NCBI GenBank assembly: GCA_021650915.1
Contig: CP091279.1
Coordinates: forward strand, 2,970,001-3,002,000
DNA: 32,000 bases
Direction: 5' to 3'
Source of the DNA: Candidatus Brocadia sp.
GTDB lineage: Bacteria > Planctomycetota > Brocadiia > Brocadiales > Brocadiaceae
Shown here: piece after piece, positions 1,290 to 22,230 of the stretch
Layout of the letters: each line of letters starts with the position of its first letter
Position numbering within the stretch: position 1 is the stretch's first letter
The notes under the pieces: model-generated
Told to the model about the DNA's origin: nothing
Seen by the model: only the letters and a program-made list of their open reading frames with translations
Database searches by the model: none
Program-made: the position numbers and the translations under genes

Positions 1290-2171
1290 TTACTTCTTGA
1301 TATTGAGTTCGTCCAGTATCTCCTGCGCAAGCTCTCTGACGGAACCATCTTCATCGTTGAGTGCATGTTTTATAAACTCAATGGCCGCCTCATTACCCAC
1401 CTCGCCTAATGCTTCAACGGCGCTTTCACGCACCCAGGGATCCCGATCATTGAGCGCTACGGAAAGCACGTCGGCAACATTTTTGTCGCCAATATCCAGC
1501 AAGGCATCAATAGCGCTTAATCGAACATCTTCGATAGGGTCGCTTGCAAGCGCCTTCGAGAGAATTTCTACCGCTCGTATGTCTTTGCTTTCTCCTAACG
1601 CTATAATGGCATCCTCCCTTTTCCCCGGGTCTTCACTCTCTGCGGCGTCTTTTGCCAGGGTTTCAAAGGCAATCGGCTCCTTTTTTGCGTTGCTTTTTTT
1701 GGCGACGGGCAATCCGGGTTTTGGGGTAAGTTTTCTGGAAGGTTCCTCCTTTCCTTTGGTAAATATTTCTTTCGATTTGCTGGCGCTTACGATGGAAAGT
1801 TTTCCTTCTTTTCCATCATTGTGGGAAAAAACAAAGGCATAATTTTTATCTCTCAGAATTCTTCGAACCCCCTCTCTGATCGGTAAACTTTGGAATTCTA
1901 TGGTAATGGTTCCATCAATTGAGTCATTGAGCCATATCCTGGCTCCGCTTTGTGACATGATTTCTTTTAATACCGCTTCCAGCGGAGAGTTCTTCAGTTT
2001 TGCTGATAATTGCCCGTTGCTGTACTTAATATCAAGAGAGCCATCCCCGGCCGGAGTCTCTGCCCAAAGCATTTGATGTCCGCTCATGGTGGAAACAAGC
2101 AGCAACGCGGCGATAGCCATGAACAAGCTGCTTTTCGAACGCCGGATAATGCAATGGGAAAAAGAAATCAT
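1290..2171 (-). CDS. Secreted HEAT-repeat (PBS-lyase HEAT-like) protein
   Basis: The C-terminal half has tandem HEAT-like repeats (EDAIIALGESKDIRAVEILSKAL, DVRLSAIDALLDIGD, DPWVRESAVEALGEVGNEAAIEFIKHAL, DGSVRELAQEIL). The ORF is open up to 2270, but the Met at 2171 gives a signal-peptide-like N-terminus (MISFSHCIIRRSKSSLFMAIAALLLVSTMSGHQMLWA/E). The start is uncertain. Confidence 0.7.
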   Translation of the reverse strand: MISFSHCIIRRSKSSLFMAIAALLLVSTMSGHQMLWAETPAGDGSLDIKYSNGQLSAKLKNSPLEAVLKEIMSQSGARIWLNDSIDGTITIEFQSLPIREGVRRILRDKNYAFVFSHNDGKEGKLSIVSASKSKEIFTKGKEEPSRKLTPKPGLPVAKKSNAKKEPIAFETLAKDAAESEDPGKREDAIIALGESKDIRAVEILSKALASDPIEDVRLSAIDALLDIGDKNVADVLSVALNDRDPWVRESAVEALGEVGNEAAIEFIKHALNDEDGSVRELAQEILDELNIKK

Positions 2172-2289
2172 ACGGTGTCGAGAAGCGATCCGGGAAAGGC
2201 GTCCCAGGAAACACTCAGACCATAAAGGCCGACGCCCGCCGCGAGATGACATATTGAACGGAATGTTCATAGCGAAACCGCAATCAATT

Positions 2290-2356
2290 CCCCCTTACCA
2301 AAGAGGGATACAGGGGGTTGTAAAAAACTTACCGAAAAAAATTTTGTACCGTAATG
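2290..2356 (+). repeat. Partial copy (3' module) of the dispersed modular repeat family, preceded by a C5...G5 hairpin
   Basis: CCCCCTTACCAAAGAGGGATACAGGGGG is followed by TTGTAAAAAACTTACCGAAAAAAATTTTGTACCGTAAT. This aligns by eye with the 3' ends of the repeats at 11356-11405, 19059-19109 and 19271-19334 (GGTTGcGAAAAAACTTACAAAAAAAGAAGTTTTTAcACAGTAAT). Confidence 0.6.
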
Positions 2357-2362
2357 CTCTCA

Positions 2363-3895
2363 TCATGCACTTTTGCCGTGAATGATACTGATTAATAATT
2401 TTTTCCCCTTCTCCATGATTTCTGGTGTTTTTCCCTCTACATTTAACCGGAGCAGGGGTTCCGTATTTGACTTTCTGACGTTGAACCACCAGTCTTGATA
2501 CTCCACGGTTACTCCATCCAGATAGTCTACGTTTCCATCTGAAAATTTTCTGGCAATTTCTGCAATTTTTTCATCCTTATCATCTACCTCAAAATTTATT
2601 TCGCCGGTAGAATAATATCGCCTGAGCGGTGATACAATATTTGAGAAGGGGACGCGTTTTGCGCTCAGGATATCCAAAACCATAAGGAAGGCGATCATTC
2701 CTGAATCAGAATAGTAATTATTTTTAAAGTAGTAGTGTCCGGAAAGCTCTCCGCCAAAAAAAGCATTTTTTTCCCGAAGGGTTGCCTTCATATATGCGTG
2801 GCCAACACGTTCGCGGTACGGCACGCCGCCACCGGCCTTTATTTCTTCGGGAACAACCCAGCTTGAGCGGAGATCATAAAGAATTGTAGCTCCCTTTTCA
2901 CGCTCAAGAACCTGTCGTGCGATCAGCGCTGTAATAATATCGCATCCAATGATTCGCCCTGTTTCGTCCACAAAAAAACACCGATCCGCATCTCCGTCAA
3001 AGGCCACTCCAAGATGAGCCCTCGTCTCGCGCACCTTTTTTTGTAAATCAACCATGTTTTCAGGGTTCAATGGATTTGCCTCGTGATTAGGAAAGGTTCC
3101 GTCCAGTTCAAAGTAGAGGGGGATAATTTCAAGAGGAAGTCCTTCACAAACGACCGGAATGGTTTTCCCTGCCATTCCATTTCCCGCATCGACGACGATC
3201 CGAAGATGTCTGAGGTTGCCGGCAAATTTCAGGACGTGCTTCTTATAATCTCCAAAAATATCGTTCTGGACAACCTTGCCAAGTTGTTCCCCGCGCGGGG
3301 GATGATACTGACTTGTCAGCTTTGAAATACGGCTAATCCCGGTCTCAAAACTGACGGGGATCGCCTGTTTTCTGCATATCTTGAATCCGTTGTATTCGGC
3401 GGGATTGTGCGAAGCAGTCACCATTATCCCACCATCATATTGGTAATGACCCACCGCAAAATACGTCATCTCCGTTGAAACGACACCCAAATTAACCACG
3501 TTGAGTCCGGCCGTGCATAACCCTTCGATCAGGGCGTTGGCAAGCGATTTTGAAGAGGTCCTCATATCTCTCCCCACGGCAATGTTTTTTACCCCAGGGT
3601 CTTGCTCCTTAAAAAACTGGGCTATGGATGTTCCAATCTTGTGAGCTGCTGTGTCATTTAATTCTGCGGGATACTTCCCGCGAATATCATAACTCTTAAA
3701 GATATCTCTCGATAGTTTGGGTTCCGTATGGGATTGGCTGGAATTTCTCATCTCAACCCTCTCCAGACATACATTGCATTTCGGATAATTTACCCGCTGT
3801 CTGCCCTTGCACACCGAATCGGTAATAGTATAAGACTCACCGGGACAACGGTACTGTCTCTCGTCTGCCTTTTCACTTATGAATCCTTTTTTCAT
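2363..3895 (-). CDS. Phosphomannomutase/phosphoglucomutase (alpha-D-phosphohexomutase family)
   Basis: It has the active-site loop TASHNPAEYNGFK, the metal-binding loop FDGDADR, GGELSGH, and an N-terminal core IFKSYDIRGKYP typical of ManB/Pgm. The longest ORF adds a Cys-containing extension of about 48 aa. The alternative start is Met49 at 3751. Confidence 0.9.
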   Translation of the reverse strand: MKKGFISEKADERQYRCPGESYTITDSVCKGRQRVNYPKCNVCLERVEMRNSSQSHTEPKLSRDIFKSYDIRGKYPAELNDTAAHKIGTSIAQFFKEQDPGVKNIAVGRDMRTSSKSLANALIEGLCTAGLNVVNLGVVSTEMTYFAVGHYQYDGGIMVTASHNPAEYNGFKICRKQAIPVSFETGISRISKLTSQYHPPRGEQLGKVVQNDIFGDYKKHVLKFAGNLRHLRIVVDAGNGMAGKTIPVVCEGLPLEIIPLYFELDGTFPNHEANPLNPENMVDLQKKVRETRAHLGVAFDGDADRCFFVDETGRIIGCDIITALIARQVLEREKGATILYDLRSSWVVPEEIKAGGGVPYRERVGHAYMKATLREKNAFFGGELSGHYYFKNNYYSDSGMIAFLMVLDILSAKRVPFSNIVSPLRRYYSTGEINFEVDDKDEKIAEIARKFSDGNVDYLDGVTVEYQDWWFNVRKSNTEPLLRLNVEGKTPEIMEKGKKLLISIIHGKSA

Positions 3896-8796: not shown

Positions 8797-9615
8797 ATGA
8801 GGATACCAGGGGAAGAGGCGAATCTGTTTTACAAGTTAATATGGGGGCTGCAATTTTACGTCAATCAACAGCACCAAATCTTGCCAAACATCAAATCAGC
8901 TAATGAATATGCGGAACTGCCGATGTCAGAAAAACTTGAAGTGCGTGATGCACTGTGGAAAAACCCGAACCTGATTGACGTCTATGTAGAAAAGAACCCT
9001 GACAGTTTATCAACTCAGGAACTGGATATCGTCAGCAAGTGGAAACGATTTGTCGCCGGAGGATTTCAGATTTTCCGTTACTTAAAGAACTACACGATCT
9101 TTATCAATGAAAATTCACAGGTATATGGTGTATTGGGATTATACGATAATCTGGAAGACCTGTTTCCCGGAAGGCCTCTGCCAATGATGGTTGCGGCTGT
9201 ACTTTTGCCGTTCAAAGGGAAGATTGTGTATGATGGGGTGCTGAAGGGATACAACATTTCTTTTGGAGGCAGTATTCGGTCCGGTTTAAATGAGAAGTAC
9301 ATGGCAGCCAAACAGAACGATCGTATTATTACTACCCTGGAACCGGAGGCTGCGCCACCGATACAAGCCAGGCATCAACAGAAGCCCGGCAAAGACTGGA
9401 AGCCAGTGGTAGAGGAGATCGTGCGAGCAAGTGAAAAGATGCGGGGAAGTTCTCCTGTCCAGAATGCTGCTTTTGCCCTGCTACGGGACAGTGCAAGAAC
9501 AGCACAATTGGTAGTGCAGCAACCGGATGATTTGGAAGAGATTTGGCGTCTGAAAGAACAGGTGCAAAAGGCATTGAATCAGCTACAAAGAGTTCTGGAG
9601 CGCGCCGAACAATAA
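8797..9615 (+). CDS. Hypothetical protein (272 aa), no recognisable catalytic motif
   Basis: It has a good SD (AAGGAG) 8 nt upstream and lies 35 nt after the DUF1264 stop. Coding-like composition holds throughout. The C-terminal third (roughly the last 90 aa) is predicted helical and charged. I saw no Walker, nuclease or HTH motif. Confidence 0.6.
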   Translation: MRIPGEEANLFYKLIWGLQFYVNQQHQILPNIKSANEYAELPMSEKLEVRDALWKNPNLIDVYVEKNPDSLSTQELDIVSKWKRFVAGGFQIFRYLKNYTIFINENSQVYGVLGLYDNLEDLFPGRPLPMMVAAVLLPFKGKIVYDGVLKGYNISFGGSIRSGLNEKYMAAKQNDRIITTLEPEAAPPIQARHQQKPGKDWKPVVEEIVRASEKMRGSSPVQNAAFALLRDSARTAQLVVQQPDDLEEIWRLKEQVQKALNQLQRVLERAEQ

Positions 9616-9693
9616 GGGGCTTAGTGCAATGGACGTATCTGAAAACGGATAAAGCAGAAAATTGATAACATTACATGAAAAGGGTTATTTCCC

Positions 9694-10815
9694 ATGAGTG
9701 AGTATCAGTATTATGAATTTCGGGCAATTGACCGTCCCTTAACAGAAGCTCAGAAATCAAAGATTTCAGCGCTTTCCAGCCGGGCGCATGTCACCTCTCA
9801 CACGGCCTCGTTTGTTTACAACTACGGAGATTTTCGGGGAAATCCAGAACAACTCATGAGCGACTATTTTGATGCCATGGTGTATGTGAGCGATTGGGGT
9901 TCAAGGCGTTTAATGTTTCGTATCCCTCTATCCCTGATTGACACGAAAAAACTTGGACGGTATTGTATTTCAGAAGAAATCAATGCAAGAGAGACAAAAC
10001 AGGGCGTAGTTTTAGACATGAACTTTCATGATGAGGAACTGGCAGACTGGACCGAAGGCGAAGGGTGGTTAGACGAACTTGTTGAAATGAGAGCGGAACT
10101 GATTCGGGGAGATTCTCGGGTTCTCTATCTGGCATGGCTGAAGGCTGCCGAAAATGCGTTGAGAGCAGAAGATATTGATGACGATACCCTGGAACCTCCT
10201 GTCCCACCGGGATTAAATCAACTCTCTGGTGCACAAAATGTCTTCGTCAGGTTTTTAGAAATTGATGAAGCAATGCTTGTGGTAGCGGCCCAAAAGAGCG
10301 AGGAGCAAAAAGAGGATCATCTGCAACTCGAAAATTGGGTAGAAAAATTATCCATCGAAGAACAACATGAGTTTCTCAGACGCTTAAGTCGGGGAGAGCC
10401 TAATCTATCAGTACTCATGAATAGGCGTCTTCATGAGTTAGCGAATAAGACGCAATGTTCTGCGGACGGAGGAGGCATAGGGCAAAGAACGATTGCCGGG
10501 TTGATTCAGGCCGCAGAGGAATGGCGAAGCCGTAAACAAGAAGACGAGCGCCGCAAAGAGGAACTTGCACGAAAACGAAGGCTGGAGGAGTTCGCAGTGA
10601 AAGAAAACGATGCCTGGCAGCAGGTTGAGATCCTGATCAACGAGAAAAAGCCCAAGTCGTATGATAGCGCCATTGGCCTGCTCAAGGAACTCCGGGAACT
10701 TGCGGAATACCAGGGAAGACTGGAAGGATTTAAAAAGCGCGTTGCAGAAATTCAACAGACGTATTCGAACCGGCCGGCGTTACGAGACCGGATACTTCAT
10801 GCCAGTTTGATTTGA
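9694..10815 (+). CDS. Hypothetical protein (373 aa) with a conserved-looking N-terminal domain and a charged coiled-coil C-terminus
   Basis: The N-terminus is MSEYQYYEFRAIDRPLTEAQKSKISALSSRAHVTSHTASFVYNYGDFRGNP. I recall similar N-termini in uncharacterised bacterial proteins but cannot name a family. The C-terminus is Lys/Arg/Glu-rich (RSRKQEDERRKEELARKRRLEEFAVKEND). No enzymatic motif was recognised. Confidence 0.6.
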   Translation: MSEYQYYEFRAIDRPLTEAQKSKISALSSRAHVTSHTASFVYNYGDFRGNPEQLMSDYFDAMVYVSDWGSRRLMFRIPLSLIDTKKLGRYCISEEINARETKQGVVLDMNFHDEELADWTEGEGWLDELVEMRAELIRGDSRVLYLAWLKAAENALRAEDIDDDTLEPPVPPGLNQLSGAQNVFVRFLEIDEAMLVVAAQKSEEQKEDHLQLENWVEKLSIEEQHEFLRRLSRGEPNLSVLMNRRLHELANKTQCSADGGGIGQRTIAGLIQAAEEWRSRKQEDERRKEELARKRRLEEFAVKENDAWQQVEILINEKKPKSYDSAIGLLKELRELAEYQGRLEGFKKRVAEIQQTYSNRPALRDRILHASLI

Positions 10816-11405: not shown

Positions 11406-11469
11406 CGTGAAGATGGCTATTTTGTAACACGGAGTGGCAGGAGCAGGAGAGAGTAAACCTGGAGAAGAT

Positions 11470-13437
11470 ATGGATTTAGCACAGCACAATATGATCGTAA
11501 ATTTTATTTGGAGTATTGCAGATGACTGTCTGCGCGATGTTTACGTACGTGGCAAATATCGCGATGTAATTCTTCCCATGACGGTAATCCGCAGAATTGA
11601 CGCCTTGCTTGAACCTGCCAAACAGGCTGTTCTAAAGATGAAGGAACAACTTGATGCCGCAAAGGTCACCAACCAGCATCCGGCGCTTTGCCAGGCGGCA
11701 GGGCAGGCTTTTTACAATACAAGTCCCTTTGTCCTGCGTGACTTAAAATCCCGTAGCTCACAGCAAAAGCTGAAAGCCGACTTTGAATCCTATCTCGATG
11801 GTTTCTCTCCGAATGTCCAGGAGATTCTGGAAAAGTTTAAGTTCAGGAATCAGATCCCCACCATGATTGAATCGGATATTCTCGGATTGGTTATAGAGAA
11901 ATTCACCAACACGGAAATCAACCTGAGCCCTAACCCGGCGCTTGATGTCAATGGCAATGTTCGCCTCCCTGCGCTGGATAACCATTCTATGGGGATGATT
12001 TTTGAAGAGCTGATCCGCCGTTTCAACGAAGAAAACAACGAAGAGGCGGGAGAACATTTTACCCCGCGCGATGTAGTCAAGCTGATGGCAAAGCTCATAT
12101 TTTTGCCGGTTGCCGATAAAATTGAGTCAGGCACCTATCTGGTGTATGACGGCGCTTGCGGAACCGGTGGTATGCTGACCGTGGCGGAAGATACGCTCTT
12201 GCAGCTTGCCAAAGAACACGGAAAAGAAGTTGCGATTCACCTTTACGGGCAGGAATCTCAGCCTGAAACCTACGCCATTCTCAAGGCAGACCTTTTATTG
12301 AAAGGCGAAGGCGCTGAAGCCGAAAACATGAAGTTCGGCTCAACGCTCTCCGCCGATGGCCATTCGTCAAGGGAATTTGACTTTATGCTCTCCAATCCAC
12401 CCTACGGCAAAAGCTGGAAGACCGACCAGGAACGCATGGGCGGCAAAGGGGAAATAAAAGACCATCGATTTGTCATCAACTATAGCGGTGATCCCGAATA
12501 CAAGATGATCACCCGTTCGAGCGACGGGCAGATGTTGTTCCTTGTAAACAAGCTGTCCAAAATGAAAGGCAATACTGCCCTTGGAAGCCGTATCGCGGAG
12601 GTTCATAATGGTTCTTCTTTATTCACCGGAGATGCCGGACAGGGGGAAAGCAATATCCGCCGCTGGATTATTGAAAACGACTGGCTGGAAGCGATCGTTG
12701 CCCTGCCGGAAAACATGTTCTACAACACCGGTATTGCCACCTATATCTGGCTTTTGTCTAACCGGAAAAGTTTAGAGCGAAAAGGCAAGGTTCAACTCAT
12801 TGACGCCAGCGGCTGGTTTGTGCCGCTTCGCAAAAACCTCGGCAAGAAAAACTGCGAGTTTTCCGAAGAACAGATACGGCAGATTGCCGACTTGATTGTG
12901 AATCCCAGGGAAACCGAGCAGTCCAAAATCTTCCCTAATGAGACCTTTGGCTATCACAAAATTACGGTTGAACGCCCTTTGAAGCTGAAGGATATTGACC
13001 CTGAGAAAGCCTACTTACCAAAAGAGATCAAGGCTTTTGTGGCAGAAGGAAAGGCAGATGAAAACGGCATTCCGGCAATCAGGAAAATCCACAAATCAGG
13101 CAGGGCCGATCCTCTGCACGGCCTGTTTGCGCGGACTATTGGTGGTAAAAAATGCGTGGTAGAGTATGAGCCGGATACCAACCTTCGAGATACGGAACAG
13201 GTTCCTTTATTGGAAGATGGAGGCATAGAAGCCTTTTTCAAGCGAGAAGTGCTGCCCTATGTGCCAGACGCATGGATTGACGGGAACAAAACCCAGATTG
13301 GCTATGAAGTTTCCTTTACCCGGTACTTTTACAAACCAGTGCAGATGCGGACGCTTGATGAAATCATGGCGGATATTCGTGCTATTGAAAAAGAGACGGA
13401 TGGACTGTTAAATGAGATTGTAGGGGATGGAAAATGA
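11470..13437 (+). CDS. hsdM: Type I restriction-modification system, DNA methyltransferase subunit M
   Basis: The N-terminal HsdM domain is [41 protein letters not shown]. The SAM motif is [11 protein letters not shown] and the catalytic motif is [13 protein letters not shown] 11470 has GGAGA 5 nt upstream; the ORF is also open from GTG 11434. Confidence 0.92.
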
Positions 13438-13916
13438 ATCCGCGGATAACGCAGATGGACGCAGATAAGAAAGATTCAGAGACCTACTTAATCATTGGCG
13501 CGGCAATGGCTGTTCACCGTGAATTAGGCAACGGTTTTTTAGAGGCTGTTTATCAAGAAGCTTTAGAAAAGGAGTTTTCCAGGCAAGGGATTTCGTATGT
13601 TCGGGAACAAGAGCTTAAGATATGTTATCGTGGTCAAGAGCTGAAGACATGCTATAAGGCGGATTTTGTTTGTTTTGGCAATATAATCGTTGAACTGAAA
13701 GCCCTGCAGCAATTATCCGGCAATGAAGAATCACAAATTATCAATTATTTAAAGGCCTCCGGCTTAAACAAGGGACTTTTGCTTAATTTTGGAACCAGGC
13801 AGTTGCAATATAAAAGATTTGTCTTTAATCTGCGAGAATCTGCGTCATCTGCGGATGGAGGAAAAGGCATGAGTCCGCAGATGACGCAGATTCTCGCAGA
13901 TAAAAGAACAAAATAG
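13434..13916 (+). CDS. GxxExxY protein (PD-(D/E)xK nuclease fold, PDDEXK_3/TIGR04256-type), copy 1
   Basis: It has the GFLEAVY motif (GxxExxY) and a nuclease-like D...ELK ([16 protein letters not shown]). Its start overlaps the hsdM stop (ATGA). The ORF reads through its own 3' inverted terminus and the adjacent palindrome ([29 protein letters not shown]), so the last 20 aa or so may not be native. Confidence 0.85.
13828..13901. repeat. Perfect 28-bp inverted repeat (palindrome) with an 18-nt spacer
   Basis: ATCTGCGAGAATCTGCGTCATCTGCGGA (13828-13855) is the exact reverse complement of TCCGCAGATGACGCAGATTCTCGCAGAT (13874-13901). The left arm is the 3' terminus of GxxExxY copy 1. The right arm resembles the 5' terminus of copy 2. 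Confidence 0.95.
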
Positions 13917-13954
13917 AATTGTTTTAAAGACGCTCATTTGCGCAATCCGCGGAT
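13874..13954 (+). repeat. Gene-less mini derivative of the GxxExxY cassette (5'-terminus-like and 3'-terminus-like sequences about 25 bp apart)
   Basis: The 5' part ATGAGTCCGCAGATGACGCAGATTCTCGCAGATAAAAG parallels the copy 2 start ATGCATCCGCAGATGACGCAGAGGGACGCAGAGAGAAG. The 3' part GCGCAATCCGCGGATAAAGG parallels the copy 2 end GTGCAATCTGCGGATAAAGA. It lies 14 nt upstream of the hsdS ATG, the same spacing as copy 2 to hsdR. Confidence 0.6.
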
Positions 13955-13968
13955 AAAGGTAGTGAACA

Positions 13969-15327
13969 ATGAATTTGAAACCATACCCAGAATATAAAGA
14001 CTCCGGTGTTGCGTGGCTGGGGGATGTGCCGAGGCATTGGGCGGTGCATCCGTTGAAACGATATGCAAAAAATATAATCAATAATGTTATATCGAAAAAC
14101 AGTGAGGAACTTTATATTGCATTAGAACATATTGAAGGTTGGACTGGTAGATTTAAAAAAAACAGAGAGGCAAAATTCACAGGGCAGGTAAAAAGATTCT
14201 CTGAAACTGATGTCCTTTTGGGAAAATTACGCCCATATTTGGCGAAAGTAGCTTTTCCAAAAGAAAAAGGCGTATGTGTAGGAGAAATACTTTCTATTAG
14301 GCCAAATGTAAACTATTTACTGGGGACATTTTTAGAAAAATCATTTTTGTCTTTTCCTTTTATAGGGATAGTAAATGGTTCAACTTATGGTTCTAAAATG
14401 CCACGGACAGAATGGGATTTTATCGGAAATCTTGGATTCCCAATCATCCCTCTCCCCGAACAAAACCAAATTGCCCGTTTCCTCGATTACAAAACCGCCC
14501 AGATTGCCCGCTTCATCAAGGCCAAAAAGCGGATGATTGAACTCTTGAAAGAGCAGAAGCAGGTGATCATCAACGATGCAGTAACGGGAAAGATTGATGT
14601 CGCCACTGGCAAACCTTATCCGAAATACAAAGACTCCGGCATGGAATGGCTGGGGCAGGTGCCGGAGGGATGGGAGGTGTTGCCATTAAGGTGGCACATA
14701 TTGATTGGCTCTGGAGAGTTCCGTTCTGGAAATTTAATTAGAACTGAAAAATCATCTGATTACCAGTATCCAGTTATCGGTGGAAACGGTGTATTGGGTT
14801 ATACTAATTCAAATAACTCAGAAGATAATTTGATTATAATTGGTAGAGTTGGCGCTCTTTGTGGAAATGTTCATTATGTAAAAGAATCTGCTTGGATTAC
14901 AGATAATGCATTACGAATTGATGATATTAGGAAATTCCAACCTGAATTTCTGGCTTTACAATTAAAAGCAATGAACCTTAATAAACTATCAAATGCGAAT
15001 GCACAGCCGCTTATTACTGGTGGTATTATTAAGTCGCAAAAAGTTGTCTTTCCACCTCTTAATGAACAACTTGAAATTCTGAAATACATCGAACACAAAA
15101 CCGCCGCCATTGGCAAAACCATCTCCCGCACTGAGCGGGAAATCGCTCTGATGCAGGAATACCGCACACGGCTCATCTCCGATGTGGTAACGGGAAAAAT
15201 AGATGTGCGAGGTATTGAAATACCTGACATTGCCGACATTGATGATACACTTGACGAAGCAATGGAAGAAACCGAAGGTAAAGATGAATGGGAAACAGAG
15301 GAGGCGGAAGAATGCATCCGCAGATGA
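13969..15327 (+). CDS. hsdS: Type I restriction-modification system, specificity subunit S (two target-recognition domains)
   Basis: It has a duplicated architecture. Each half starts with PYP.YKDSG..WLG.VP..W (aa 5-25 and about 216-236). Each half ends with the conserved helical spacer: PLPEQNQIARFLDYKTAQIARFIKAKKRMIELLKEQKQVIINDAVTGKIDV and PPLNEQLEILKYIEHKTAAIGKTISRTEREIALMQEYRTRLISDVVTGKIDV. The TRD segments are visibly more AT-rich. Confidence 0.92.
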   Translation: MNLKPYPEYKDSGVAWLGDVPRHWAVHPLKRYAKNIINNVISKNSEELYIALEHIEGWTGRFKKNREAKFTGQVKRFSETDVLLGKLRPYLAKVAFPKEKGVCVGEILSIRPNVNYLLGTFLEKSFLSFPFIGIVNGSTYGSKMPRTEWDFIGNLGFPIIPLPEQNQIARFLDYKTAQIARFIKAKKRMIELLKEQKQVIINDAVTGKIDVATGKPYPKYKDSGMEWLGQVPEGWEVLPLRWHILIGSGEFRSGNLIRTEKSSDYQYPVIGGNGVLGYTNSNNSEDNLIIIGRVGALCGNVHYVKESAWITDNALRIDDIRKFQPEFLALQLKAMNLNKLSNANAQPLITGGIIKSQKVVFPPLNEQLEILKYIEHKTAAIGKTISRTEREIALMQEYRTRLISDVVTGKIDVRGIEIPDIADIDDTLDEAMEETEGKDEWETEEAEECIRR

Positions 15328-15752
15328 CGCAGAGGGACGCAGAGAGAAGAGATCCTCAGACATACACGATTATTGGTGCGGCAATGCAGGTTCATAAAGA
15401 ACTGGGACACGGTTTCTTGGAGGCTGTGTATCAGGAAGCTTTAGAAAGAGAGTTTTCTAAACAGGGAATTCCTTATGTTCGGGAACAGGAGCTTAAGATA
15501 TTTTATTGTGGTCAAGAATTGAAGACATTTTACAAAGCGGATTTTGTTTGCTTTAGTAGTATAATCGTTGAATTGAAAGCTGTACAAAATATTACAGGAG
15601 TAGACGAGGCTCAGGTTATCAACTACCTGAAAGCATCTAATCTGAATAAAGCACTTTTGATTAATTTTGGTAGCTTGAGCTTACAGTACAAACGACTGGT
15701 CTTTAATCTGCGTGAATCTGTGCAATCTGCGGATAAAGAGAGGGAAGCATGA
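15312..15752 (+). CDS. GxxExxY protein (PD-(D/E)xK nuclease fold), copy 2
   Basis: It is a paralogue of 13434..13916 ([57 protein letters not shown]). ATG 15312 aligns with the copy 1 start (MHPQMTQRDAERRD versus [14 protein letters not shown]); the ORF is open from 15288. The start lies inside the last 16 nt of hsdS, and the stop overlaps the hsdR start (ATGA). Confidence 0.85.
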   Translation: MHPQMTQRDAERRDPQTYTIIGAAMQVHKELGHGFLEAVYQEALEREFSKQGIPYVREQELKIFYCGQELKTFYKADFVCFSSIIVELKAVQNITGVDEAQVINYLKASNLNKALLINFGSLSLQYKRLVFNLRESVQSADKEREA

Positions 15753-18709
15753 ATCCAACTGACATGTCTGAAAAAGGTTTAGAAACCCTCATAGTCAATT
15801 CTCTAATAAACGATGCAGGCTATGTGCCGGGCGATCCCAAAGACTACGACCGCGAACATGCCGTTGACCTTGCCAAACTGATGGAGTTTGCAAAGGTAAC
15901 CCAGCCCAAGGCCTTTGAGGCGCTTTCGCTGGGTGAGGACACACCCAAACGCACCAAGTTTCTGCACCGCTTGCAGGGTGAGATTGCCAGACGGGGAGTG
16001 ATTGATGTGTTAAGGCTTGGCGTTAACGACGGACATATAAAGCTGGAACTGTTTTACGGAACGCCTTCTGAGCAAAACCCAAAGGCGCAGGAGCTGTACA
16101 AACAGAACATTTTCAGCGTTACGCGCCAGTTGCAATACAGTATGGATAATACGAAGCTTGCCCTGGATATGGCGATTTTTATTAACGGCCTGCCGGTAAT
16201 CACTTTTGAGTTGAAAAACAAAATCACCAAGCAGACCGTGGAAGATGCGGTTCAGCAGTACAAGTGCGATCGGGATTCCCGCGAGCTTTTGTTTCAATTC
16301 GGGCGCTGTGCGGTGCACTTTGCCGTTGACGACCATGAAGTGCGGATGTGCACCCATCTGAAAGACAAGGCGTCATGGTTCCTGCCGTTCAACAAAGGCT
16401 ATAACGACGGCGCCGGAAATCCTCCAAACCCCAACGGCATTGCCACTGATTATCTCTGGAAAGAGACGCTGCAGAAAGACAGCCTTACGAATATCCTGGA
16501 AAACTACGCCCAAATCGTAGAAAAGAAAGACGAGAAAACCGGCAGGAAAAAACATGAACAGATATTCCCACGTTACCACCAGCTTGATGTGGTGCGAAAA
16601 CTCCTTGCTTCGGCACCAGTTGATGGAGTCGGGAAGCGGTACCTTATTCAGCATTCTGCCGGAAGCGGCAAGAGTAATTCCATAAGCTGGCTTGCGCATC
16701 AGTTTGTAGGACTGGAAAAAGACGGCAAAGCCCTTTTTGACACGATTATCGTCGTTACCGACCGCCGGGTGCTGGACAAGCAGCTTCGCGATAACATCAA
16801 ACGCTTTGCGCAGGTCTCATCCATTGTTGGAGCGGTTACCGAAGGGTCTCAACAGCTTCGCTCGTTTTTGGAGCAGGGCAAGAAGGTGATCATTACCACA
16901 GTGCAGAAATTCCCCTTTGTGCTGGATCAGATCGGCGACCATCATCGCAACAGTAAATTTGCCATTATTATCGACGAAGCACACTCCAGCCAGGGCGGGC
17001 GCACCGCATCAAAAATGAATATGGTGCTGGCGGAATCTACTGCTCAATACGGCGAACCTGAACCGGAAGAGGATATTGAAGATGCTATCAACAAGATTAT
17101 GACCTCCCGCAAGATGCTGTCCAACGCGAGCTATTTTGCCTTCACCGCTACGCCCAAAAACAAGACTCTGGAAATATTCGGCGAACCCTATTCTGAAGGT
17201 GATACGGTCAAACACCGTCCGTTCCATGCCTACACCATGAAACAGGCAATTCAGGAAGGCTTTATTCTTGATGTTTTACAGAACTATACACCGGTTGACA
17301 GTTATTACCGTTTGATAAAATCAGTTGAAAATGATCCTGAGTTTGATACCAGGCGCGCCAGGAAGAAACTCCGCCGCTATGTAGAATCTCACAATTACGC
17401 TATTCGCCAGAAGGCGGAAATCATGATTGACCATTTCCATGATGAGGTGATCGCCCGTCATAAAATCGGCGGTAATGCCCGCGCCATGGTGGTATGCAGT
17501 GGCATTGAACGGGCAATTCAGTATTACCATGCTTTTTGCGCTTATCTGACAGAACGGAAATCGCCGTATAAGGCAATCGTGGCCTTTTCCGGTGAATACG
17601 ATTACGGCGGCAAGCATCTCACCGAATCGAATTTAAACGGTTTCCCAGGCAATACGATTCCGGACACCTTTCAGCATGACCCCTATCGGTTTCTTATTGT
17701 TGCTGATAAATTTCAGACAGGTTACGACGAGCCGCTCTTGCATACCATGTACGTGGATAAACAACTGTCGGGAATTAAGGCTGTACAGACCTTGTCGCGC
17801 CTGAACCGGGCGCATCCCCTCAAAACGGATACCTTCATATTGGATTTCATGAATGATGCTGAAGTCATTCAATATGCCTTTTCCGATTACTACAGGACGA
17901 CCATACTGAGCAATGAAACAAATCCCAACAAACTCCATGATTTAAAGTCTGCACTTGATGGTTATCAGGTGTACACGCAGTTACAAATTAACGACGTTGT
18001 ATCGCTCTTTCTGAAGGGTGAAGCGAGAGAAAAAATTGATCCGGTTCTCGATGCGTGTGTGGCTAATTACCATGCTGAACTTGATGAAGATGGGCAAGTG
18101 GATTTTAAGGGCAAGGCAAAGGCGTTTGTAAGAATGTATAACTTCCTCGCATCCATTCTCCCCTATGCCAATGCTCAATGGGAAAGGCTTTCGATATTCC
18201 TCAACTTTTTGATCCCAAAACTGCCTGCTCCAAAAGAAGATGATTTGTCCAAAGGGATCCTTGAAACGATAGATATGGACAGTTATCGCGTAGAGATACA
18301 AGCTGTCCATAAAATCCAGTTGGTCGATGACAATGCAGAGATTGATCCCATTTTGATTGGGAGCGGCGGTAAAAAAGCAGAACCGGAACTGGACCATTTG
18401 AGCAACATTATCAAGGCATTTAACGAACAATTTGGAAACATAGACTGGAAAGACGCCGATAAAATCAGAAAAATTATAGCCGAAGAACTTCCGGGAAAGG
18501 TTTCTGCAGATAAGGCCTATCAAAACGCCATGAATCAAAATGATAAGCAAAATGCAAGAATCGAACACGACAAGGCCCTTGAGCGGGTCATTGTAGAGAT
18601 GCTCACCGACCACACGGAGCTGTTCAAACAATTTATGGATAATCAGAGTTTCAAGAAATGGCTGGCAGATACAATATTCAATGAAACCTATAAAAAGAAG
18701 TTGGCCTGA
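15749..18709 (+). CDS. hsdR: Type I restriction endonuclease subunit R (helicase/nuclease)
   Basis: The N-terminal PD-(D/E)xK motif is LDMAIFINGLPVITFELKN. SF2 helicase motifs are QHSAGSGKSNS (I), IIIDEAHSSQ (II, DEAH), FAFTATP (III) and QTLSRLNR (VI). Its length is 986 aa. Confidence 0.93.
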   Translation: MNPTDMSEKGLETLIVNSLINDAGYVPGDPKDYDREHAVDLAKLMEFAKVTQPKAFEALSLGEDTPKRTKFLHRLQGEIARRGVIDVLRLGVNDGHIKLELFYGTPSEQNPKAQELYKQNIFSVTRQLQYSMDNTKLALDMAIFINGLPVITFELKNKITKQTVEDAVQQYKCDRDSRELLFQFGRCAVHFAVDDHEVRMCTHLKDKASWFLPFNKGYNDGAGNPPNPNGIATDYLWKETLQKDSLTNILENYAQIVEKKDEKTGRKKHEQIFPRYHQLDVVRKLLASAPVDGVGKRYLIQHSAGSGKSNSISWLAHQFVGLEKDGKALFDTIIVVTDRRVLDKQLRDNIKRFAQVSSIVGAVTEGSQQLRSFLEQGKKVIITTVQKFPFVLDQIGDHHRNSKFAIIIDEAHSSQGGRTASKMNMVLAESTAQYGEPEPEEDIEDAINKIMTSRKMLSNASYFAFTATPKNKTLEIFGEPYSEGDTVKHRPFHAYTMKQAIQEGFILDVLQNYTPVDSYYRLIKSVENDPEFDTRRARKKLRRYVESHNYAIRQKAEIMIDHFHDEVIARHKIGGNARAMVVCSGIERAIQYYHAFCAYLTERKSPYKAIVAFSGEYDYGGKHLTESNLNGFPGNTIPDTFQHDPYRFLIVADKFQTGYDEPLLHTMYVDKQLSGIKAVQTLSRLNRAHPLKTDTFILDFMNDAEVIQYAFSDYYRTTILSNETNPNKLHDLKSALDGYQVYTQLQINDVVSLFLKGEAREKIDPVLDACVANYHAELDEDGQVDFKGKAKAFVRMYNFLASILPYANAQWERLSIFLNFLIPKLPAPKEDDLSKGILETIDMDSYRVEIQAVHKIQLVDDNAEIDPILIGSGGKKAEPELDHLSNIIKAFNEQFGNIDWKDADKIRKIIAEELPGKVSADKAYQNAMNQNDKQNARIEHDKALERVIVEMLTDHTELFKQFMDNQSFKKWLADTIFNETYKKKLA

Positions 18710-18889
18710 TAGGAAAACGGGTTTGACAAGGAGCTCCACCGGAAGAGGATTCCGCTATCGGCTCACCCTTGCCAGCGAACTTGGGCGGTGAACTATTGAT
18801 TGATACCTGTTCCCTTTAGAAATCTCCGCTCGTGCATCGTATAAGCTTACTAATTCATGCTCATAAAAAAGACGGCCACCCATTATTCA

Positions 18890-19109
18890 TAGCGCGGCAA
18901 AGCCGCAACCAAATTTCCTTTATGAAAGCGGGGAGATTGCTTCGGAAAAGGCCCCTCGCAATGACAGCGACCATGCACTTTGATGGCACACTGCACGTTG
19001 TCATTGCGAGTGAAGCGAAGCAATCTTTCACTCATAAGAAACGGCACCTCCTGAAAGAGGTTTGTGAAAAAACTTACAAAAAAAAGAAGTTTTTATACAG
19101 TAATACTAT
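18890..19109 (+). repeat. Modular hairpin repeat, copy B (220 bp), downstream of hsdR
   Basis: It is a near-identical direct repeat of 11187-11405, with the same nested hairpin (AGATTGCTTCG / CTCGCAATGAC ... GTCATTGCGAG / CGAAGCAATCT). Confidence 0.9.
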
Positions 19110-19334
19110 AGCGCAGCAAGGCCGCAACCAATTCACCGTTGTGAAAGCGGGAGATTGCTTCGGACAAGACCCTCGCAATGACACTGGCTATGCCTTTGAT
19201 GACATACGGTACGTTGTCATTGCGAGCAAAGCGAAGCAATCCTTCCCTCGCAAACAAACGGTACCTTCTGATAAGGGATAAACAGGGTTGCGAAAAAACT
19301 TACAAAAAAAGAAGTTTTTACACAGTAATATTAT
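19109..19334 (+). repeat. Modular hairpin repeat, copy C (diverged, in tandem with copy B), ending 17 nt before the radical SAM start
   Basis: It has the same module order as copies A and B. All four stem arms are conserved exactly, while the loops and flanks diverge (apical loop ACTGGCTATGCCTTTGATGACATACGGTACGTT versus AGCGACCATGCACTTTGATGGCACACTGCACGTT). Confidence 0.85.
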
Positions 19335-19350
19335 AAAGAATCTTCGGGAT

Positions 19351-22230
19351 ATGCAAACGAACATGCTGCCTATTAAACCTTATGACTGCCTGCGATCCTC
19401 GCAGGAGATCAGGTTGTGGTATGAAAAGAATTATCATCTCCTTTCCCGGGCGGGATTATGGTTAAAGGGAGAGGAACCCAATACCATGGACCCCGCCTTG
19501 TTTTATCAGGCCGAACTGCGATTCCTGATTTGCAGGCTGTCAACCTATCGTGATGTATCGGTTTCAATTTCCCACCCCCTCGTAGCCCAGATTGCTCAGG
19601 AGGTTGCAGGCGTCTTTACCGATTTTGCCTTCCTGCCCCCTCCCAAAGATCTCGGTGTAATGACGGACGCCCACATACCCCTTTGGGTTGGCACAACCAC
19701 AAAGGAACCCCCAGGCGCCTTTGACGTGCTCGGGATCAGCAATTCTTTTGTCCTGGAATTGCTGAACTTGCCAAAACTGCTTCATTTTTCAGGTATTCCC
19801 CTCTTTAAAAATGAACGCATGATGCGCTCAGACATTCCCTTGATTGTGCTTGGTGGTGCAAGCGCAGCGGTTACCTCGGTATTGCATGGTCCGACACAGG
19901 AACAGGATTTTGGAAATACTTGTGGCCTCGTCGATGCTGTGTTTCTTGGGGAAGGGGAATATTCCTTAAAACAATTTCTGGAGATAGTGAAAAGAGGAAA
20001 ATCTGCCGGCCTGAGTAAAAGTGAAATTTTACAGGCGTGTCATGGAAAGGTCGATGGGTTCTATGAGCCGGATAAATATGAGCATCGGTATCAAATCGTT
20101 GTCCAAAATCCTGCAGGGACGCCGATGGAAGCAGAAATAACGCAGGGCAATTTGCTGGAAATTTCGCCAAAAGAGCCGTACGTGTCATATCCGGTAAGGA
20201 GTGCTGTAGTGTACGACCTTGATCAGGTGAAAACCCTGGAAACCGGCCCGATATGGTACGAAACCGAAGGACTCGGTGCGGGAAGTCTGCAAATCAGTAG
20301 CGGATGTCCGTGCTTCTGCTCTTTCTGTGCCGAAAGCTGGGAGAGAAAACCATACCGGGAACGATCCTTATTAAAACTTTTAGAGGCGTTGAAGGCGGCA
20401 AAGGCGCAGCAAGGGCTTGATACGGTCGCGCTCTTCAGTTTTAATTTTAATACCCACTCGGAGCTGTACCCTATGATTTTGTCTTTTTATCGCGAAATGG
20501 ACAGTGTCAGCCTGAAAAGTCAGCGATTTGACCTGCTGTCTGCCGACCGCTTCCTTGCTGAAGTGCAGCAGGTCATTGGAAAGACGACGGTGAGCTGCGG
20601 GATGGAGGGTATTAGCGAGCGATTGAGACGTTTCCTGCACAAGAATCTTACCGAAGAGCAGATCTATAAGGCCTGCGAATACCTCCTGGAGAGGGGCATC
20701 CGGGAACTGAAGATATTTTTGATCTGCACGGGGCTGGAGCAAGCGGAAGATTTTGAGGAATTCGGAAGATTTGTAAAGCGACTGGATGATCTGAAAGGCA
20801 TGTCGGGCAGTAACGTGCGCATAATCTTCAGCCTCACACCGCTCTATTATCCGCCGCATACCCCGCTGCAATTTCACGAGTGCTTAACAGCAATTGCAGA
20901 CATAAAGAAGATCAGCCGGGCAATTGAGCGTATCTGCAAATTACAGAATATGGAATTCCGGGAAAGCGCCACGCATGAGGAAATATGGATGACCCAGTTG
21001 CTGGCGATGGGAGACAGACGATTAACCGCCGCCCTTATCCGCTCGTCGATTACCGATGGGTTTGTGTATTACAATGCTATACCAAAGCAGATACTCAGGA
21101 ATTGGCGCGCCTATCTGATGGAATTAGGGCTATCCGAAGAAAATTACTTTTGTGCAAAAGGAAAAGACCACGTCTTTCCCTGGAACGATATCGATTTGGG
21201 TATCTCAAAGAAATTTTTATGGGAAGAGCATGAACGTTCAATCCATTTTCAGGAGCGGGAATATTGCCTGGGACGCCCGCACGTTGAGGCGCGCTGTCTG
21301 GGATGCGGGGCGTGTCCAACTCCGGCGCAGATAAAAAAACTTACCCATCACACGATCTCTCAGCCATTTCTTATGGAAGAGATTCTCCGGATAACAGCAA
21401 GCAAACGCAACAAACGTATCCTGCGGGCCGTGGTGGAGATTGAATCCACCTTGCGCTTGGCCCCAAAACGATTTGTTGGAGTGGCCATTGCGCGTGCCCT
21501 TATGCTCGCCATACCGGAAGTTGTGCCGTATTATCAGGCGGTGTCTTCATCCATGCAGTACCTTGAAGAAGAATCGGCCATTGCTGATTTTACTCATGGT
21601 ATGAATGTTTATCACCTGTCATTTCTCTCGCATGATACAACAAAAAAACTGCTGGACAATGAATCCCTTTCCCTGCGGCTCAATCACATCCAGGAACATT
21701 GCCGGGGATTCCGGATCAGGGAATGTATGGTGGATCCAGGTGATATGCCGGAGGTGCACGGTATCCTCTATAAGATATGTCTCCCTGCGGAATTTACGGC
21801 CCCTTTTCTGCAACAAAAACTCGGTGCATATCTGCACGCAAATTACGTCCGGCATACCTTGTTAAAAAGGGAAGGGCAGACAATTTTTCAGGTAGATCCG
21901 AAACACAGGAAAAATGCCGTCGTTCTTTATGCACGAATTGATAAAACCCACCGGACGAAAGAGGCAGATACAGAATTTTCCCTTTACATGCTGGCATCAA
22001 GGCGTTTTCGTATGCAGGAATTTCTGGAGGCCTGTTACGGTTTTGAGAGAAGGAAGGAAATCGTCCGGACGCAGATAGAAGCCCTGGGATATTACGGAAA
22101 AAATCCTGTCTTGCAGCAGGGTGCACAATGTACATCGTGTCATACCCCTATCTCTGAAGCCTTTCTCTTTAGCCAATCTTCCGGGGAAAATCGATGCCTG
22201 TTCTGCAGCACACAGCCAAATCCTCATTAA
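19351..22230 (+). CDS. Large radical SAM protein: a B12-binding-like/radical SAM core (TIGR03960-like) fused to a DUF2344 (TIGR03936-like) C-terminal region, with a terminal Cys4 motif
   Basis: The radical SAM cluster motif is SGCPCFCSFCAE (CxxxCxxC). The N-terminal pattern FDVLGISNSFVLELLNLPKLLHFSGIPLFKNER...PLIVLGGA...DAVFLGEGE fits my memory of TIGR03960. The C-terminal 300 aa or so are consistent with the linked DUF2344 domain, which is often a separate gene. The protein ends with CTSC-x21-CLFC. The TTG at 19288 lies inside repeat C, so ATG 19351 is preferred. Confidence 0.75.
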   Translation: MQTNMLPIKPYDCLRSSQEIRLWYEKNYHLLSRAGLWLKGEEPNTMDPALFYQAELRFLICRLSTYRDVSVSISHPLVAQIAQEVAGVFTDFAFLPPPKDLGVMTDAHIPLWVGTTTKEPPGAFDVLGISNSFVLELLNLPKLLHFSGIPLFKNERMMRSDIPLIVLGGASAAVTSVLHGPTQEQDFGNTCGLVDAVFLGEGEYSLKQFLEIVKRGKSAGLSKSEILQACHGKVDGFYEPDKYEHRYQIVVQNPAGTPMEAEITQGNLLEISPKEPYVSYPVRSAVVYDLDQVKTLETGPIWYETEGLGAGSLQISSGCPCFCSFCAESWERKPYRERSLLKLLEALKAAKAQQGLDTVALFSFNFNTHSELYPMILSFYREMDSVSLKSQRFDLLSADRFLAEVQQVIGKTTVSCGMEGISERLRRFLHKNLTEEQIYKACEYLLERGIRELKIFLICTGLEQAEDFEEFGRFVKRLDDLKGMSGSNVRIIFSLTPLYYPPHTPLQFHECLTAIADIKKISRAIERICKLQNMEFRESATHEEIWMTQLLAMGDRRLTAALIRSSITDGFVYYNAIPKQILRNWRAYLMELGLSEENYFCAKGKDHVFPWNDIDLGISKKFLWEEHERSIHFQEREYCLGRPHVEARCLGCGACPTPAQIKKLTHHTISQPFLMEEILRITASKRNKRILRAVVEIESTLRLAPKRFVGVAIARALMLAIPEVVPYYQAVSSSMQYLEEESAIADFTHGMNVYHLSFLSHDTTKKLLDNESLSLRLNHIQEHCRGFRIRECMVDPGDMPEVHGILYKICLPAEFTAPFLQQKLGAYLHANYVRHTLLKREGQTIFQVDPKHRKNAVVLYARIDKTHRTKEADTEFSLYMLASRRFRMQEFLEACYGFERRKEIVRTQIEALGYYGKNPVLQQGAQCTSCHTPISEAFLFSQSSGENRCLFCSTQPNPH

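Follow-up and report, generated by a model that had tools for sequence, protein, structure and literature searches.

The 32-kb window of Candidatus Brocadia DNA analysed here (a stretch of 32,000 nucleotides, to which all plain coordinates refer) contains a type I restriction-modification (RM) operon in which two genes of the GxxExxY family are lodged between hsdM and hsdS and between hsdS and hsdR. Each gene is bracketed by mirror-image arrays of three heptamers, and the unit of gene and arrays is, on balance, probably a promoterless selfish cassette that rides in host operons. Such units recur widely in bacteria, and their arrays occur essentially only beside GxxExxY genes. The heptamer is conserved as DNA and changes together with the protein lineage, the same word being inverted at both ends. 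Each unit begins within a few bases of the stop codon ahead of it and leaves a few to some tens of bases to the following start codon, and close relatives differ in the presence or absence of the unit and in holding gene-less remnants, pseudogenes or tandem arrays. The two copies in the window are best explained as long-standing occupants of a type I RM operon with junctions that are hot spots for cargo.

An earlier reading of the same stretch from its letters alone (the sequence-only reading) had placed two paralogous GxxExxY genes at these junctions, and profile searches bear this out. The two proteins, which are 73% identical to each other, score 142.4 and 144.1 bits against TIGR04256 (cut-off 35) and 133.5 and 135.4 bits against PF13366 (cut-off 22; E-values 6e-39 and 1.5e-39), and the product of the second gene is 100% identical to a Candidatus Brocadia protein. 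Each terminus consists of three heptamers, CGCAGAT at the 5' end and ATCTGCG at the 3' end, with spacings of 9 and 10 nt that are mirrored at the opposite end (Table 1); the proposed three-motif arrays are thereby confirmed, with the motif now read as a heptamer. The inverted termini proposed for both cassettes were likewise recovered by a repeat finder, with arms of 29 nt at 13438-13466 and 13828-13856 (83% complementary) and of 35 nt at 15316-15350 and 15700-15734 (74% complementary). The window holds 13 copies of ATCTGCG where 3.7 are expected; none of 100 shuffles reaches 13, and 11 of the 13 copies lie within the termini. Five triple-heptamer clusters are present, all at the cassettes or at a gene-less mini unit described below and none elsewhere in the 32 kb.

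The unit of gene and inverted arrays is found in more than 15 bacterial phyla. The query alignment was trimmed to the core domain only, to avoid circularity, and one genome per species was scanned; the sample consists of the 80 best loci (∼6 kb each; individual loci carry the prefix L below), in which 81 cassettes were tested for inverted termini. The source taxa include Geobacteraceae, Hydrogenedentota, Desulfobacteraceae, Nitrococcus, Latescibacterota, Akkermansia and other Verrucomicrobiota, Pirellulales, Acidobacteriota, Treponema, Nitrospirales, Gallionella, Gemmatimonadaceae, Chloroflexia, Prevotella and Flavobacteriales, among others. The core is preceded at ∼41-60 nt by three C(G/A)CAGAT heptamers and followed at 6-16 nt by three ATCTG(C/T)G heptamers. 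In 64 of the 81 cassettes no shuffle reaches the inverted-repeat score of the true ends, so that the inverted termini expected by the sequence-only reading in flanked homologues from other genomes are indeed present, and true partner ends outscore non-partner ends (p = 1e-10). Triple-heptamer clusters number 193 in 454 kb of GxxExxY loci versus four in 212 kb of control sdhB loci, and all four fall in the two sdhB loci that hold a GxxExxY gene. The N-terminus NPQITQMDAD and the C-terminus NLRESAQSAD recur in homologues from many phyla. Protein identity across phyla is 66-75%, equal to that between the window paralogues, and this near-equality of the sequences is counted as pointing towards horizontal spread.

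The conserved entity, as judged from the alignments, is the heptamer DNA motif and neither a peptide nor a helix. The heptamer columns are 90-100% invariant across phyla, third codon positions included (CCG, CAG, ACG, GCA and GAT, encoding Pro, Gln, Thr, Ala and Asp). The termini are translated in the window, as the sequence-only reading had observed, but this does not hold in general: in 12 of 55 cassettes, e.g. the Gallionellaceae units, the 5' array either is not in frame with the gene or is cut off from it by a stop codon, and in Bacteroides and Bernardetia neither array falls within the open reading frame (ORF). The termini were considered as a conserved peptide, and this was ruled out by the untranslated arrays and the frozen synonymous sites, which also show that the reverse-complement relation goes beyond mere conserved coding sequence. 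The spacers between heptamers are not complementary, with the inner spacer column unpaired in 21 of 25 cassettes of a 25-cassette alignment. True partner arms pair at 81.4% of positions versus 79.9% with shuffled partners, which is explained by column composition. Among sense-strand mismatches, G:U (75) is not above A:C (81), which gives no indication that an RNA stem is under selection.

Distant relatives use other heptamers, including CACAGAG, CGCGAAG and CGCAGAG, mirrored at both ends. The 5'/3' pairs are CACAGAT/ATCTGTG in Treponema, CACAGAG/CTCTGTG in Bernardetia, CGCGAAG/CTTCGCG in Sphingomonas (period 8), CGCAGAGG/CCTCTGCG in Gemmatirosa and, in Bacteroides finegoldii, CACAGAGG/CCTCTGTG, which is of CACAGAG(G) type with a period of 9. 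Further translated variants, such as PITPITPI...IGVIGVIGG, appear among representatives at 50% identity. Inversion of the same word at both ends is what is expected if one protein recognises both as duplex DNA. Gene-less hairpins built from other tandem heptamers were also seen in sdhA-sdhB spacers, ∼100 nt upstream of locus position 1201 (L088, L112, L118, L129, L139, L145 and L150; heptamers GGTAGCT, GACGAGG, GGTGAAT, CGTGGTT, GTGATTC, GTGACTC and GGGACTA). These occupy the same spacer as the GxxExxY cassettes of sister lineages and recall the cyanobacterial STRR (short tandemly repeated repetitive) heptamer repeats; by analogy, they may be relatives of the GxxExxY arrays with different specificities.

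The niche of the units is the operon junction. Of 70 loci, 57 have a co-directional upstream gene (p = 1e-7), and 43 of 61 have a co-directional downstream gene. Between the end of the upstream reading frame and the first heptamer there is a median gap of 7 nt, and the last heptamer lies 4-73 nt from the next gene start (median 22 nt, 41 cassettes), the linker supplying a Shine-Dalgarno (SD)-like motif in 21 of the 41. The units are thus tight at gene junctions without breaking the operon, in agreement with the sequence-only reading. Its figure of exactly 14 nt to the next start holds in the window, where the hsdS instance is measured from the tip of the mini unit at 13958 and not from that of cassette 1 at 13856, and does not hold elsewhere. 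A link to type I RM systems as a defining feature was not upheld: an hsdM-like gene lies upstream in only ∼10 of the 80 loci, and most other neighbours checked are housekeeping operon genes. By Pfam and record annotation, cassettes occupy the sdhA/sdhB junction in four Gallionellaceae genomes and in metagenome loci, the gltB/gltD junction in five Verrucomicrobia and the pheT/yebC, fabD/fabG, radA/FAD-protein and ade/guanylyltransferase junctions; others lie ahead of cdsA or adjoin MmeI/Eco57I-type and RhuM genes. No rRNA gene adjoins a cassette in the 80 loci. A tRNA gene stands directly upstream of one cassette (L066 2858-2931), and tRNA genes occur within ∼300 nt of another (L048 2663-2736) and beside a solo mini unit (L019 247-319). 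In L023 three GxxExxY cassettes are repeated in tandem every 443 nt (2064-3375), directly ahead of cdsA.

The sdhA-sdhB spacer, scanned with SdhB, is 2-30 nt long where it is empty. Its occupants in relatives are GxxExxY cassettes, a REP-associated tyrosine transposase (RAYT) gene with repetitive extragenic palindromic (REP) hairpins, a NucS/Cas4-like ORF or the ∼100-nt hairpins of other heptamers. The RAYT gene (NF047646, 91 bits, cut-off 80) and its REP hairpins lie at L085 500-1200, and a solo REP doublet was observed at the same place in L086 (260-380). In L092 (381-1184) a 268-residue ORF with a NucS/Cas4-like PD-(D/E)xK domain is present between sdhA and sdhB without CGCAGAT arrays. Among the cassettes of this spacer, that of L097 is frameshifted and that of L090 is partly duplicated. 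Comparison of filled and empty sdhA/sdhB sites was tried as a route to the exact ends and was rejected, the filled sites representing one old insertion and the empty ones being too diverged.

Orthologues of the window operon, with HsdR proteins 88-97% identical, give a natural series of junctions. The hsdM/hsdS and hsdS/hsdR junctions of these operons hold DUF1016/YhcG, DarT-Macro, Y1_Tnp-Macro or GxxExxY genes, or remnants, which identifies type I RM operon junctions as hot spots of cargo exchange. In L081-L084 and L170 (HsdR 88-96%) the cargo consists of one to three DUF1016/YhcG genes (PADLOC candidate PDC-S02), DarT-Macro (DarTG) or Y1_Tnp-Macro. Every cargo gene there overlaps its neighbour by ATGA or TAATG, so that it is the operon, and not the cassette, that accounts for the start-codon junction. 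The proposal of start-codon-targeted insertion with an ATGAAT or ATGAATCC duplication as a general feature accordingly falls, since unrelated cargo uses the ATGA overlaps too. At hsdR the supposed duplication is the native N-terminus M-x-P-T-D, present in orthologues with other cargo (or an unexamined region) upstream, and in-frame mini units elsewhere (L028, L054) have no ATG at their borders.

Strain B188 (HsdR 96%) retains both arrays of cassette 2 and the linker at hsdS/hsdR with identical flanks; the gene is gone and hsdMSR is intact. In L083 and L084 only a 5'-array stump, ATGAATCCGCAGAT(A/G)ACGCC, remains before the DarT/Macro or Y1_Tnp/Macro cargo. The hsdS end in L083 reads GAAGAATGA abutting ATCCGCAGAT and retains its stop, at a place where ATGC stands in the window; these stumps show the ancestral hsdS stop to be the TGA of ATGA. 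In the more distant orthologous operon L003 the hsdM/hsdS junction is empty, and region 2550-3440 holds five tandem 42-nt 5'-array units continuing from the hsdS end and three tandem 68-nt 3'-array units, every one of which has an SD motif and an ATG, followed by the GxxExxY gene and then a 5'-array/3'-array mini unit. The tandem copies of L003 show the arrays to be highly recombinogenic. Gene-less mini units (5' array, loop of at most 120 nt, 3' array) number 26 in 506 kb of loci, mostly near cassettes. Two of these are translated in frame as part of hsdS, at the exact boundary of its two target-recognition halves (L028 4040-4112 and L054 4175-4265), just ahead of a YKPSGVEWLG motif that also opens the protein. 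The hsdM junction of L082 holds the remains of small genes: at 205-300 the hsdM stop is followed by GGATAAAGG, which resembles a cassette 3' tip and linker, and then by an N-terminal fragment, MSDLKQRTKLFALSIIRLYSQMP, that, judged by eye alone, resembles the four-helix-bundle protein of 23S rRNA intervening sequences (IVSs) and is fused to DUF1016 fragments.

A gene-less mini unit also stands in the window between cassette 1 and hsdS. It comprises a third 5'-type terminus, absent from the sequence-only reading, and a 3' tip (Table 1), and between the latter and the hsdS ATG lie 10 purine-rich nucleotides that form part of the 14-nt linker; the tip of cassette 1 is followed after 12 nt by the mini unit's own ATG. 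Because this third array and mini unit follow the 3' array of cassette 1, ORF 1 runs through both arrays and stops only at 13916. The ∼102-nt mini unit is missing from the orthologous locus L084, where cassette 1 is present and the flanks do not otherwise differ. The 3' array of cassette 1 and the 5' array of the mini unit form a hairpin (13822-13907) with a 34-bp stem that is 97% complementary (dG -63.8 kcal/mol, z -13.5). Relative to strain B188 this hairpin carries two multi-base changes, each matching the opposite arm (Table 1). Changes of this kind, templated by the other arm, are the classic signature of template switching in quasi-palindromes. The near-perfect stem is accounted for by these two changes and no selection need be invoked.

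The GxxExxY protein is predicted to be a minimal (∼115-residue) nuclease of the RecB/Cas4-like PD-(D/E)xK type. The domain match spans only residues 16/17-130, so that the first ∼15 and last ∼15 residues, which are the array-encoded termini, lie outside it. In the core alignment Glu37, Asp77, Glu87, Lys89 and Gln101/Tyr105 (E...D...ExK plus QxxxY) are invariant or nearly so. An AlphaFold2 model of the gene 2 product has a pLDDT of 87, with residues 1-3 and 135-146 disordered, the latter being most of the array-encoded C-terminal tail. The top structural match of the model in the PDB is Cas4 SSO0001 (E-value 1.3e-4, TM-score 0.54), followed by AdnAB, AddAB, MGME1 and exonuclease domains of the RecB family; a sequence search of the solved structures in the PDB gave no relative. 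The cassettes contain no transposase of a known family (DDE, HUH, serine or tyrosine), no recombinase and no homing endonuclease, the sole domain being PF13366, and no PADLOC defence model matches the protein. The GxxExxY/PDDEXK_3 family comprises 14,453 clusters at 50% identity (E ≤ 1e-3). The searchable literature contains almost nothing on it, giving its function as unknown, and no account of an architecture of nuclease gene and inverted heptamer arrays. The curators of TIGR04256 are said to have described large paralogous families with a sporadic distribution.

The gene overlaps within the window operon are close. The hsdM stop TGA forms the final three bases of the ATGA that opens cassette 1 (ATG at 13434), the junction reading GGAAAATGA abutting ATCC. 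The final five codons and the stop codon of hsdS lie inside the 5' array of cassette 2, and the ATG of GxxExxY gene 2 (15312) lies within the 3' end of hsdS. The 14-nt linker AAAGAGAGGGAAGC joins the 3' array of cassette 2 to the hsdR ATG, and the gene 2 stop overlaps the hsdR start as ATGA. No match to a sigma-70-consensus promoter was found inside either window cassette. Three ORFs flanking the RM operon (272, 373 and 149 residues; 8797-10815 and 18832-19281) have no Pfam match, and the 149-residue ORF has no NCBIfam match either; beyond them, at 19288-22230, lies a gene for a 980-residue B12-binding radical SAM protein.

Table 1. Features of the GxxExxY cassettes and their operon in the window
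Feature	Position	Strand	Details
Type I RM operon	11434-18709	+	Order hsdM, GxxExxY-1, hsdS, GxxExxY-2, hsdR; Candidatus Brocadia
hsdM	11434..13437	+	Type I methylase subunit; PF02384, PF12161
GxxExxY gene 1	13434..13916	+	PF13366, TIGR04256, ORF list; predicted nuclease core residues 16-130 (nt 13479-13823)
Cassette 1 5' array	13438..13466	+	CGCGGAT, CGCAGAT, CGCAGAT, spacing 9 and 10 nt; translated; inverted repeat
Cassette 1 3' array	13822..13856	+	ATCTGCG three times, spacing 10 and 9 nt; also 5' arm of the 34-bp hairpin
B188 difference 1	13838-13856		GCGCAATC to GCGTCATC; compared with L169 3314-3332
Hairpin loop	13857..13873 (as listed)	+	18 nt; GGAGG-N7-ATG, a ribosome-binding-site-like motif and the start codon of the mini unit
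Mini unit 5' array	13874..13907	+	97% complementary to 13822-13855; inverted and direct repeat
B188 difference 2	13885-13897		GATGGACG to GATTCTCG; compared with L169 3361-3373
Mini unit 3' tip	13935..13958	+	TTTGCGCAATCCGCGGAT; inverted and direct repeat
hsdS	13969..15327	+	Specificity subunit, two repeated halves (internal repeat); PF01420
GxxExxY gene 2	15312..15752	+	PF13366, TIGR04256; predicted nuclease core residues 17-130
Cassette 2 5' array	15316..15350	+	CGCAGAT, CGCAGAG, CGCAGAG, spacing 9 and 10 nt; inverted repeat
Cassette 2 3' array	15700..15734	+	ATCTGCG, ATCTGTG, ATCTGCG, spacing 10 and 9 nt; inverted repeat
hsdR	15749..18709	+	Restriction subunit; PF04313, PF18766, PF04851, PF22679; orthologues 91-97% identical

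In the mechanism proposed for a selfish cassette, the nuclease would bind the heptamers at both ends as double-stranded DNA sites, much as a transposase binds terminal repeats or a RAYT acts on REP sequences. Expression would come by read-through from the host operon, and the stop-free arrays, together with a purine-rich 3' linker that provides spacing and often an SD-like motif, would keep that operon working. The nuclease might then cut at or near the array tips and thereby move or copy the cassette, or stimulate recombination that does so; this last step is speculative. A wider proposal, held with less than even confidence, is that GxxExxY cassettes form an unrecognised class of prokaryotic mobile or selfish element. 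Its sole enzyme would be the ∼115-residue RecB/Cas4-like nuclease reading its own heptamers; it would land right after operon stop codons, be expressed by read-through and spare the host operon by means of its arrays and linker, and it would decay to translatable mini-palindromes that could persist even in frame inside genes, and the hairpins of other heptamers would be its relatives with different specificities.

Several observations weigh against a selfish cassette. No movement of a cassette was seen, and no excision footprint or circular junction was found. No consistent target-site duplication is present at the window, RM-orthologue or sdh junctions, the available filled and empty sites being too diverged to reveal one of 2-4 bp. 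The comparison of cassette-free orthologous operons that the sequence-only reading had called for thus yielded empty, gene-less and other-cargo junctions and no target duplication. Filled sdhA/sdhB and gltB/gltD sites look vertically inherited within families, so that many copies may be long-term residents and not active elements, and gene-less mini units can form by decay in place and need not be mobile. Plasmid carriage is nearly nil (8 of 72,556 records), and the family is absent from the phage collection searched. Arrays were not detectable in two of eight more distant members examined (27-54% identity), so that the terminal arrays are widespread in the family but not universal. Array periods also vary by lineage (8, 9 or 9/10 nt), which weakens the idea of one site per helical turn. 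The discreteness of the units, as described by the sequence-only reading, is upheld, and its first hypothesis, a selfish and possibly homing-like nuclease cassette, is the best-supported direction.

Of the rival explanations, all of which rank behind a selfish cassette, the foremost is a domesticated, host-maintained and vertically inherited system of the kind argued for RAYTs. The arrays would then be operators or structural elements, and the host would benefit through mRNA stability or stoichiometry between operon genes, or through recombination or repair. The strict conservation of the catalytic residues is in keeping with this, as is the filling of the same junctions throughout the Gallionellaceae (sdhA/sdhB) and in several Verrucomicrobia (gltB/gltD), and REPIN-RAYT systems are described as mostly vertically inherited (10.1101/2022.05.22.493013). 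However, close relatives show loss of the gene with array remnants, frameshifts and replacement by unrelated cargo, identity is nearly equal across phyla and the host operons have no common functional theme, which makes domestication unlikely. A little less probable again is an RNA element, the second hypothesis of the sequence-only reading, in which the arrays would pair in the polycistronic mRNA, as in an IVS, and the stem would be cut by RNase III or a similar enzyme, excising or separating the GxxExxY message and tuning expression of the flanking genes. The transcripts of both cassettes are predicted to fold with their ends paired and to be more stable than shuffles (z -6.5 and -4.9), so that the folding anticipated by the sequence-only reading is feasible, the cassettes are co-directional with their operons and a near-perfect 34-bp stem is present in the window. 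Yet the alignments show neither a wobble bias nor covariation of partners beyond composition, the 'stem' is three blocks of 7-8 bp parted by internal loops, the heptamer is conserved far past the needs of pairing, and same-orientation tandem arrays and genes with reversed array order exist. The absence of rRNA neighbours in the 80 loci and the template-switch origin of the hairpin also argue against this explanation, and no Rfam family matches, a permissive threshold giving only sub-threshold look-alikes of miRNA hairpins.

The location of both window copies inside an hsd operon could instead indicate a PrrC/Rlo-type accessory or guardian gene serving type I restriction, with the arrays as regulatory sites. 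Such embedded genes have precedent in type I loci (PMC12707154); sister operons carry PDC-S02 or DarTG at the same junctions, and hsdM-like, MmeI/Eco57I-type or RhuM neighbours occur elsewhere. Most of the non-RM cassettes checked are nonetheless in housekeeping operons (sdh, glt, fab and pheT), no PADLOC model was matched and B188 has lost the gene of cassette 2 from an intact hsdMSR operon, all of which leaves a role of this kind quite improbable. Least probable is that the arrays are sites for a host-encoded recombinase, integron attC-like or Xer-like, and the GxxExxY gene mere cargo. This would suit the promoterless, uniformly oriented and sometimes tandem units (three in L023) and the imperfect palindromes formed where a 3' array meets the next 5' array. 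The cargo of nearly every array-bracketed unit, however, is a GxxExxY gene or nothing, the heptamer shifts with the GxxExxY lineage and no integrase is linked in the loci examined. A search for the same arrays around another gene family gave a sole candidate (L061 1310-1783), which was rejected as it holds no recognisable gene.

With its members shown to be units that carry their own terminal arrays, the GxxExxY family gains a testable function, namely sequence-specific action on a defined heptamer. The arrays also explain odd N- and C-terminal extensions and spurious small ORFs in annotation (NPQITQMDAD, NLRESAQSAD and ICVHLR-type peptides), and the placement of the units points to a way for selfish DNA to live in essential operons (sdh, glt and fab) without polar damage. 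Type I RM operon junctions are shown to exchange cargo rapidly. If it is true that the nuclease reads a lineage-specific seven-base word, the family would constitute a natural library of small DNA-recognition modules programmable by evolution, and a new transposition or recombination chemistry would be possible.

Comparison with known systems shows partial likeness to several. The type I RM accessory genes PrrC and RloC occupy the same position between hsd genes (PMC12707154), but GxxExxY cassettes are not RM-specific, carry their own arrays and match no PADLOC model. Like integron cassettes, the units are promoterless and co-oriented, would by analogy be read from an upstream promoter, have palindromes between units and form tandem arrays; they differ in having heptamer triplets instead of attC, in the lack of an integrase in the window operon and in always carrying the same cargo family. 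Free-standing homing endonuclease genes, such as the seg and mob genes of phage T4, lie between other genes and spread by 'intronless homing'. The cassettes resemble these as lone nuclease genes between conserved neighbours whose presence differs in close relatives, and spread by recombination through conserved flanking genes is plausible for them. Homing endonuclease genes, in contrast, have no terminal arrays and target the empty allele of one site, whereas GxxExxY cassettes occupy many unrelated junctions, which argues against a single long target.

The IVSs of 23S rRNA reportedly include examples with ORFs encoding a four-helix-bundle protein (TIGR02436/PF05635), as described by Ralph and McClelland in 1993. 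Common features are a small ORF bounded by inverted repeats able to pair in the transcript and a sporadic distribution, but the GxxExxY cassettes lie in mRNA operons rather than in rRNA helices and show no sign of RNA-stem selection. Rickettsia palindromic elements are said to insert in frame in genes (Ogata and co-workers, 2000), and the in-frame mini units inside hsdS are similar in this respect. The terminal inverted repeats and gene-less miniature versions are shared with insertion sequences and miniature inverted-repeat transposable elements. The ends of Mu and Tn7 carry multiple subterminal binding-site repeats, and the heptamer arrays are likewise multiple repeats at the ends. The cassettes differ from insertion sequences in having no DDE, serine or tyrosine transposase and no detected target-site duplication, and at least one GxxExxY mini unit arose by gene loss in place.

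In the REPIN/RAYT systems, REP-associated tyrosine transposase genes are flanked by REP hairpins (PMC3116915, PMC3337134). The GxxExxY protein is of the predicted RecB/Cas4-like PD-(D/E)xK type and not an HUH Y1 enzyme, with no match to PF01797 or NF047646, and since the enzyme differs the cassettes belong neither to the REPIN/RAYT family nor to the known transposable elements with terminal inverted repeats, although these two, the latter with their MITE-like derivatives, are the systems that the unit is closest to in its workings. Their ends are three spaced heptamers, usually translated within the ORF, whereas REP is a single stem-loop, and their mini units are known from the ∼6-kb loci and not as a genome-wide amplification. 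The resemblance to REPIN/RAYT is nevertheless extensive: both systems consist of a small gene, for a nuclease or a transposase, set between inverted copies of a short repeat that belongs to it, both have palindromic derivatives without the gene, and both take up extragenic space inside operons and often stay there for long periods by vertical descent. The sdhA/sdhB spacer that GxxExxY cassettes use in sister lineages holds a real RAYT/REP unit in L085, so that the niche is shared with the best-known pairing of nuclease and repeat.

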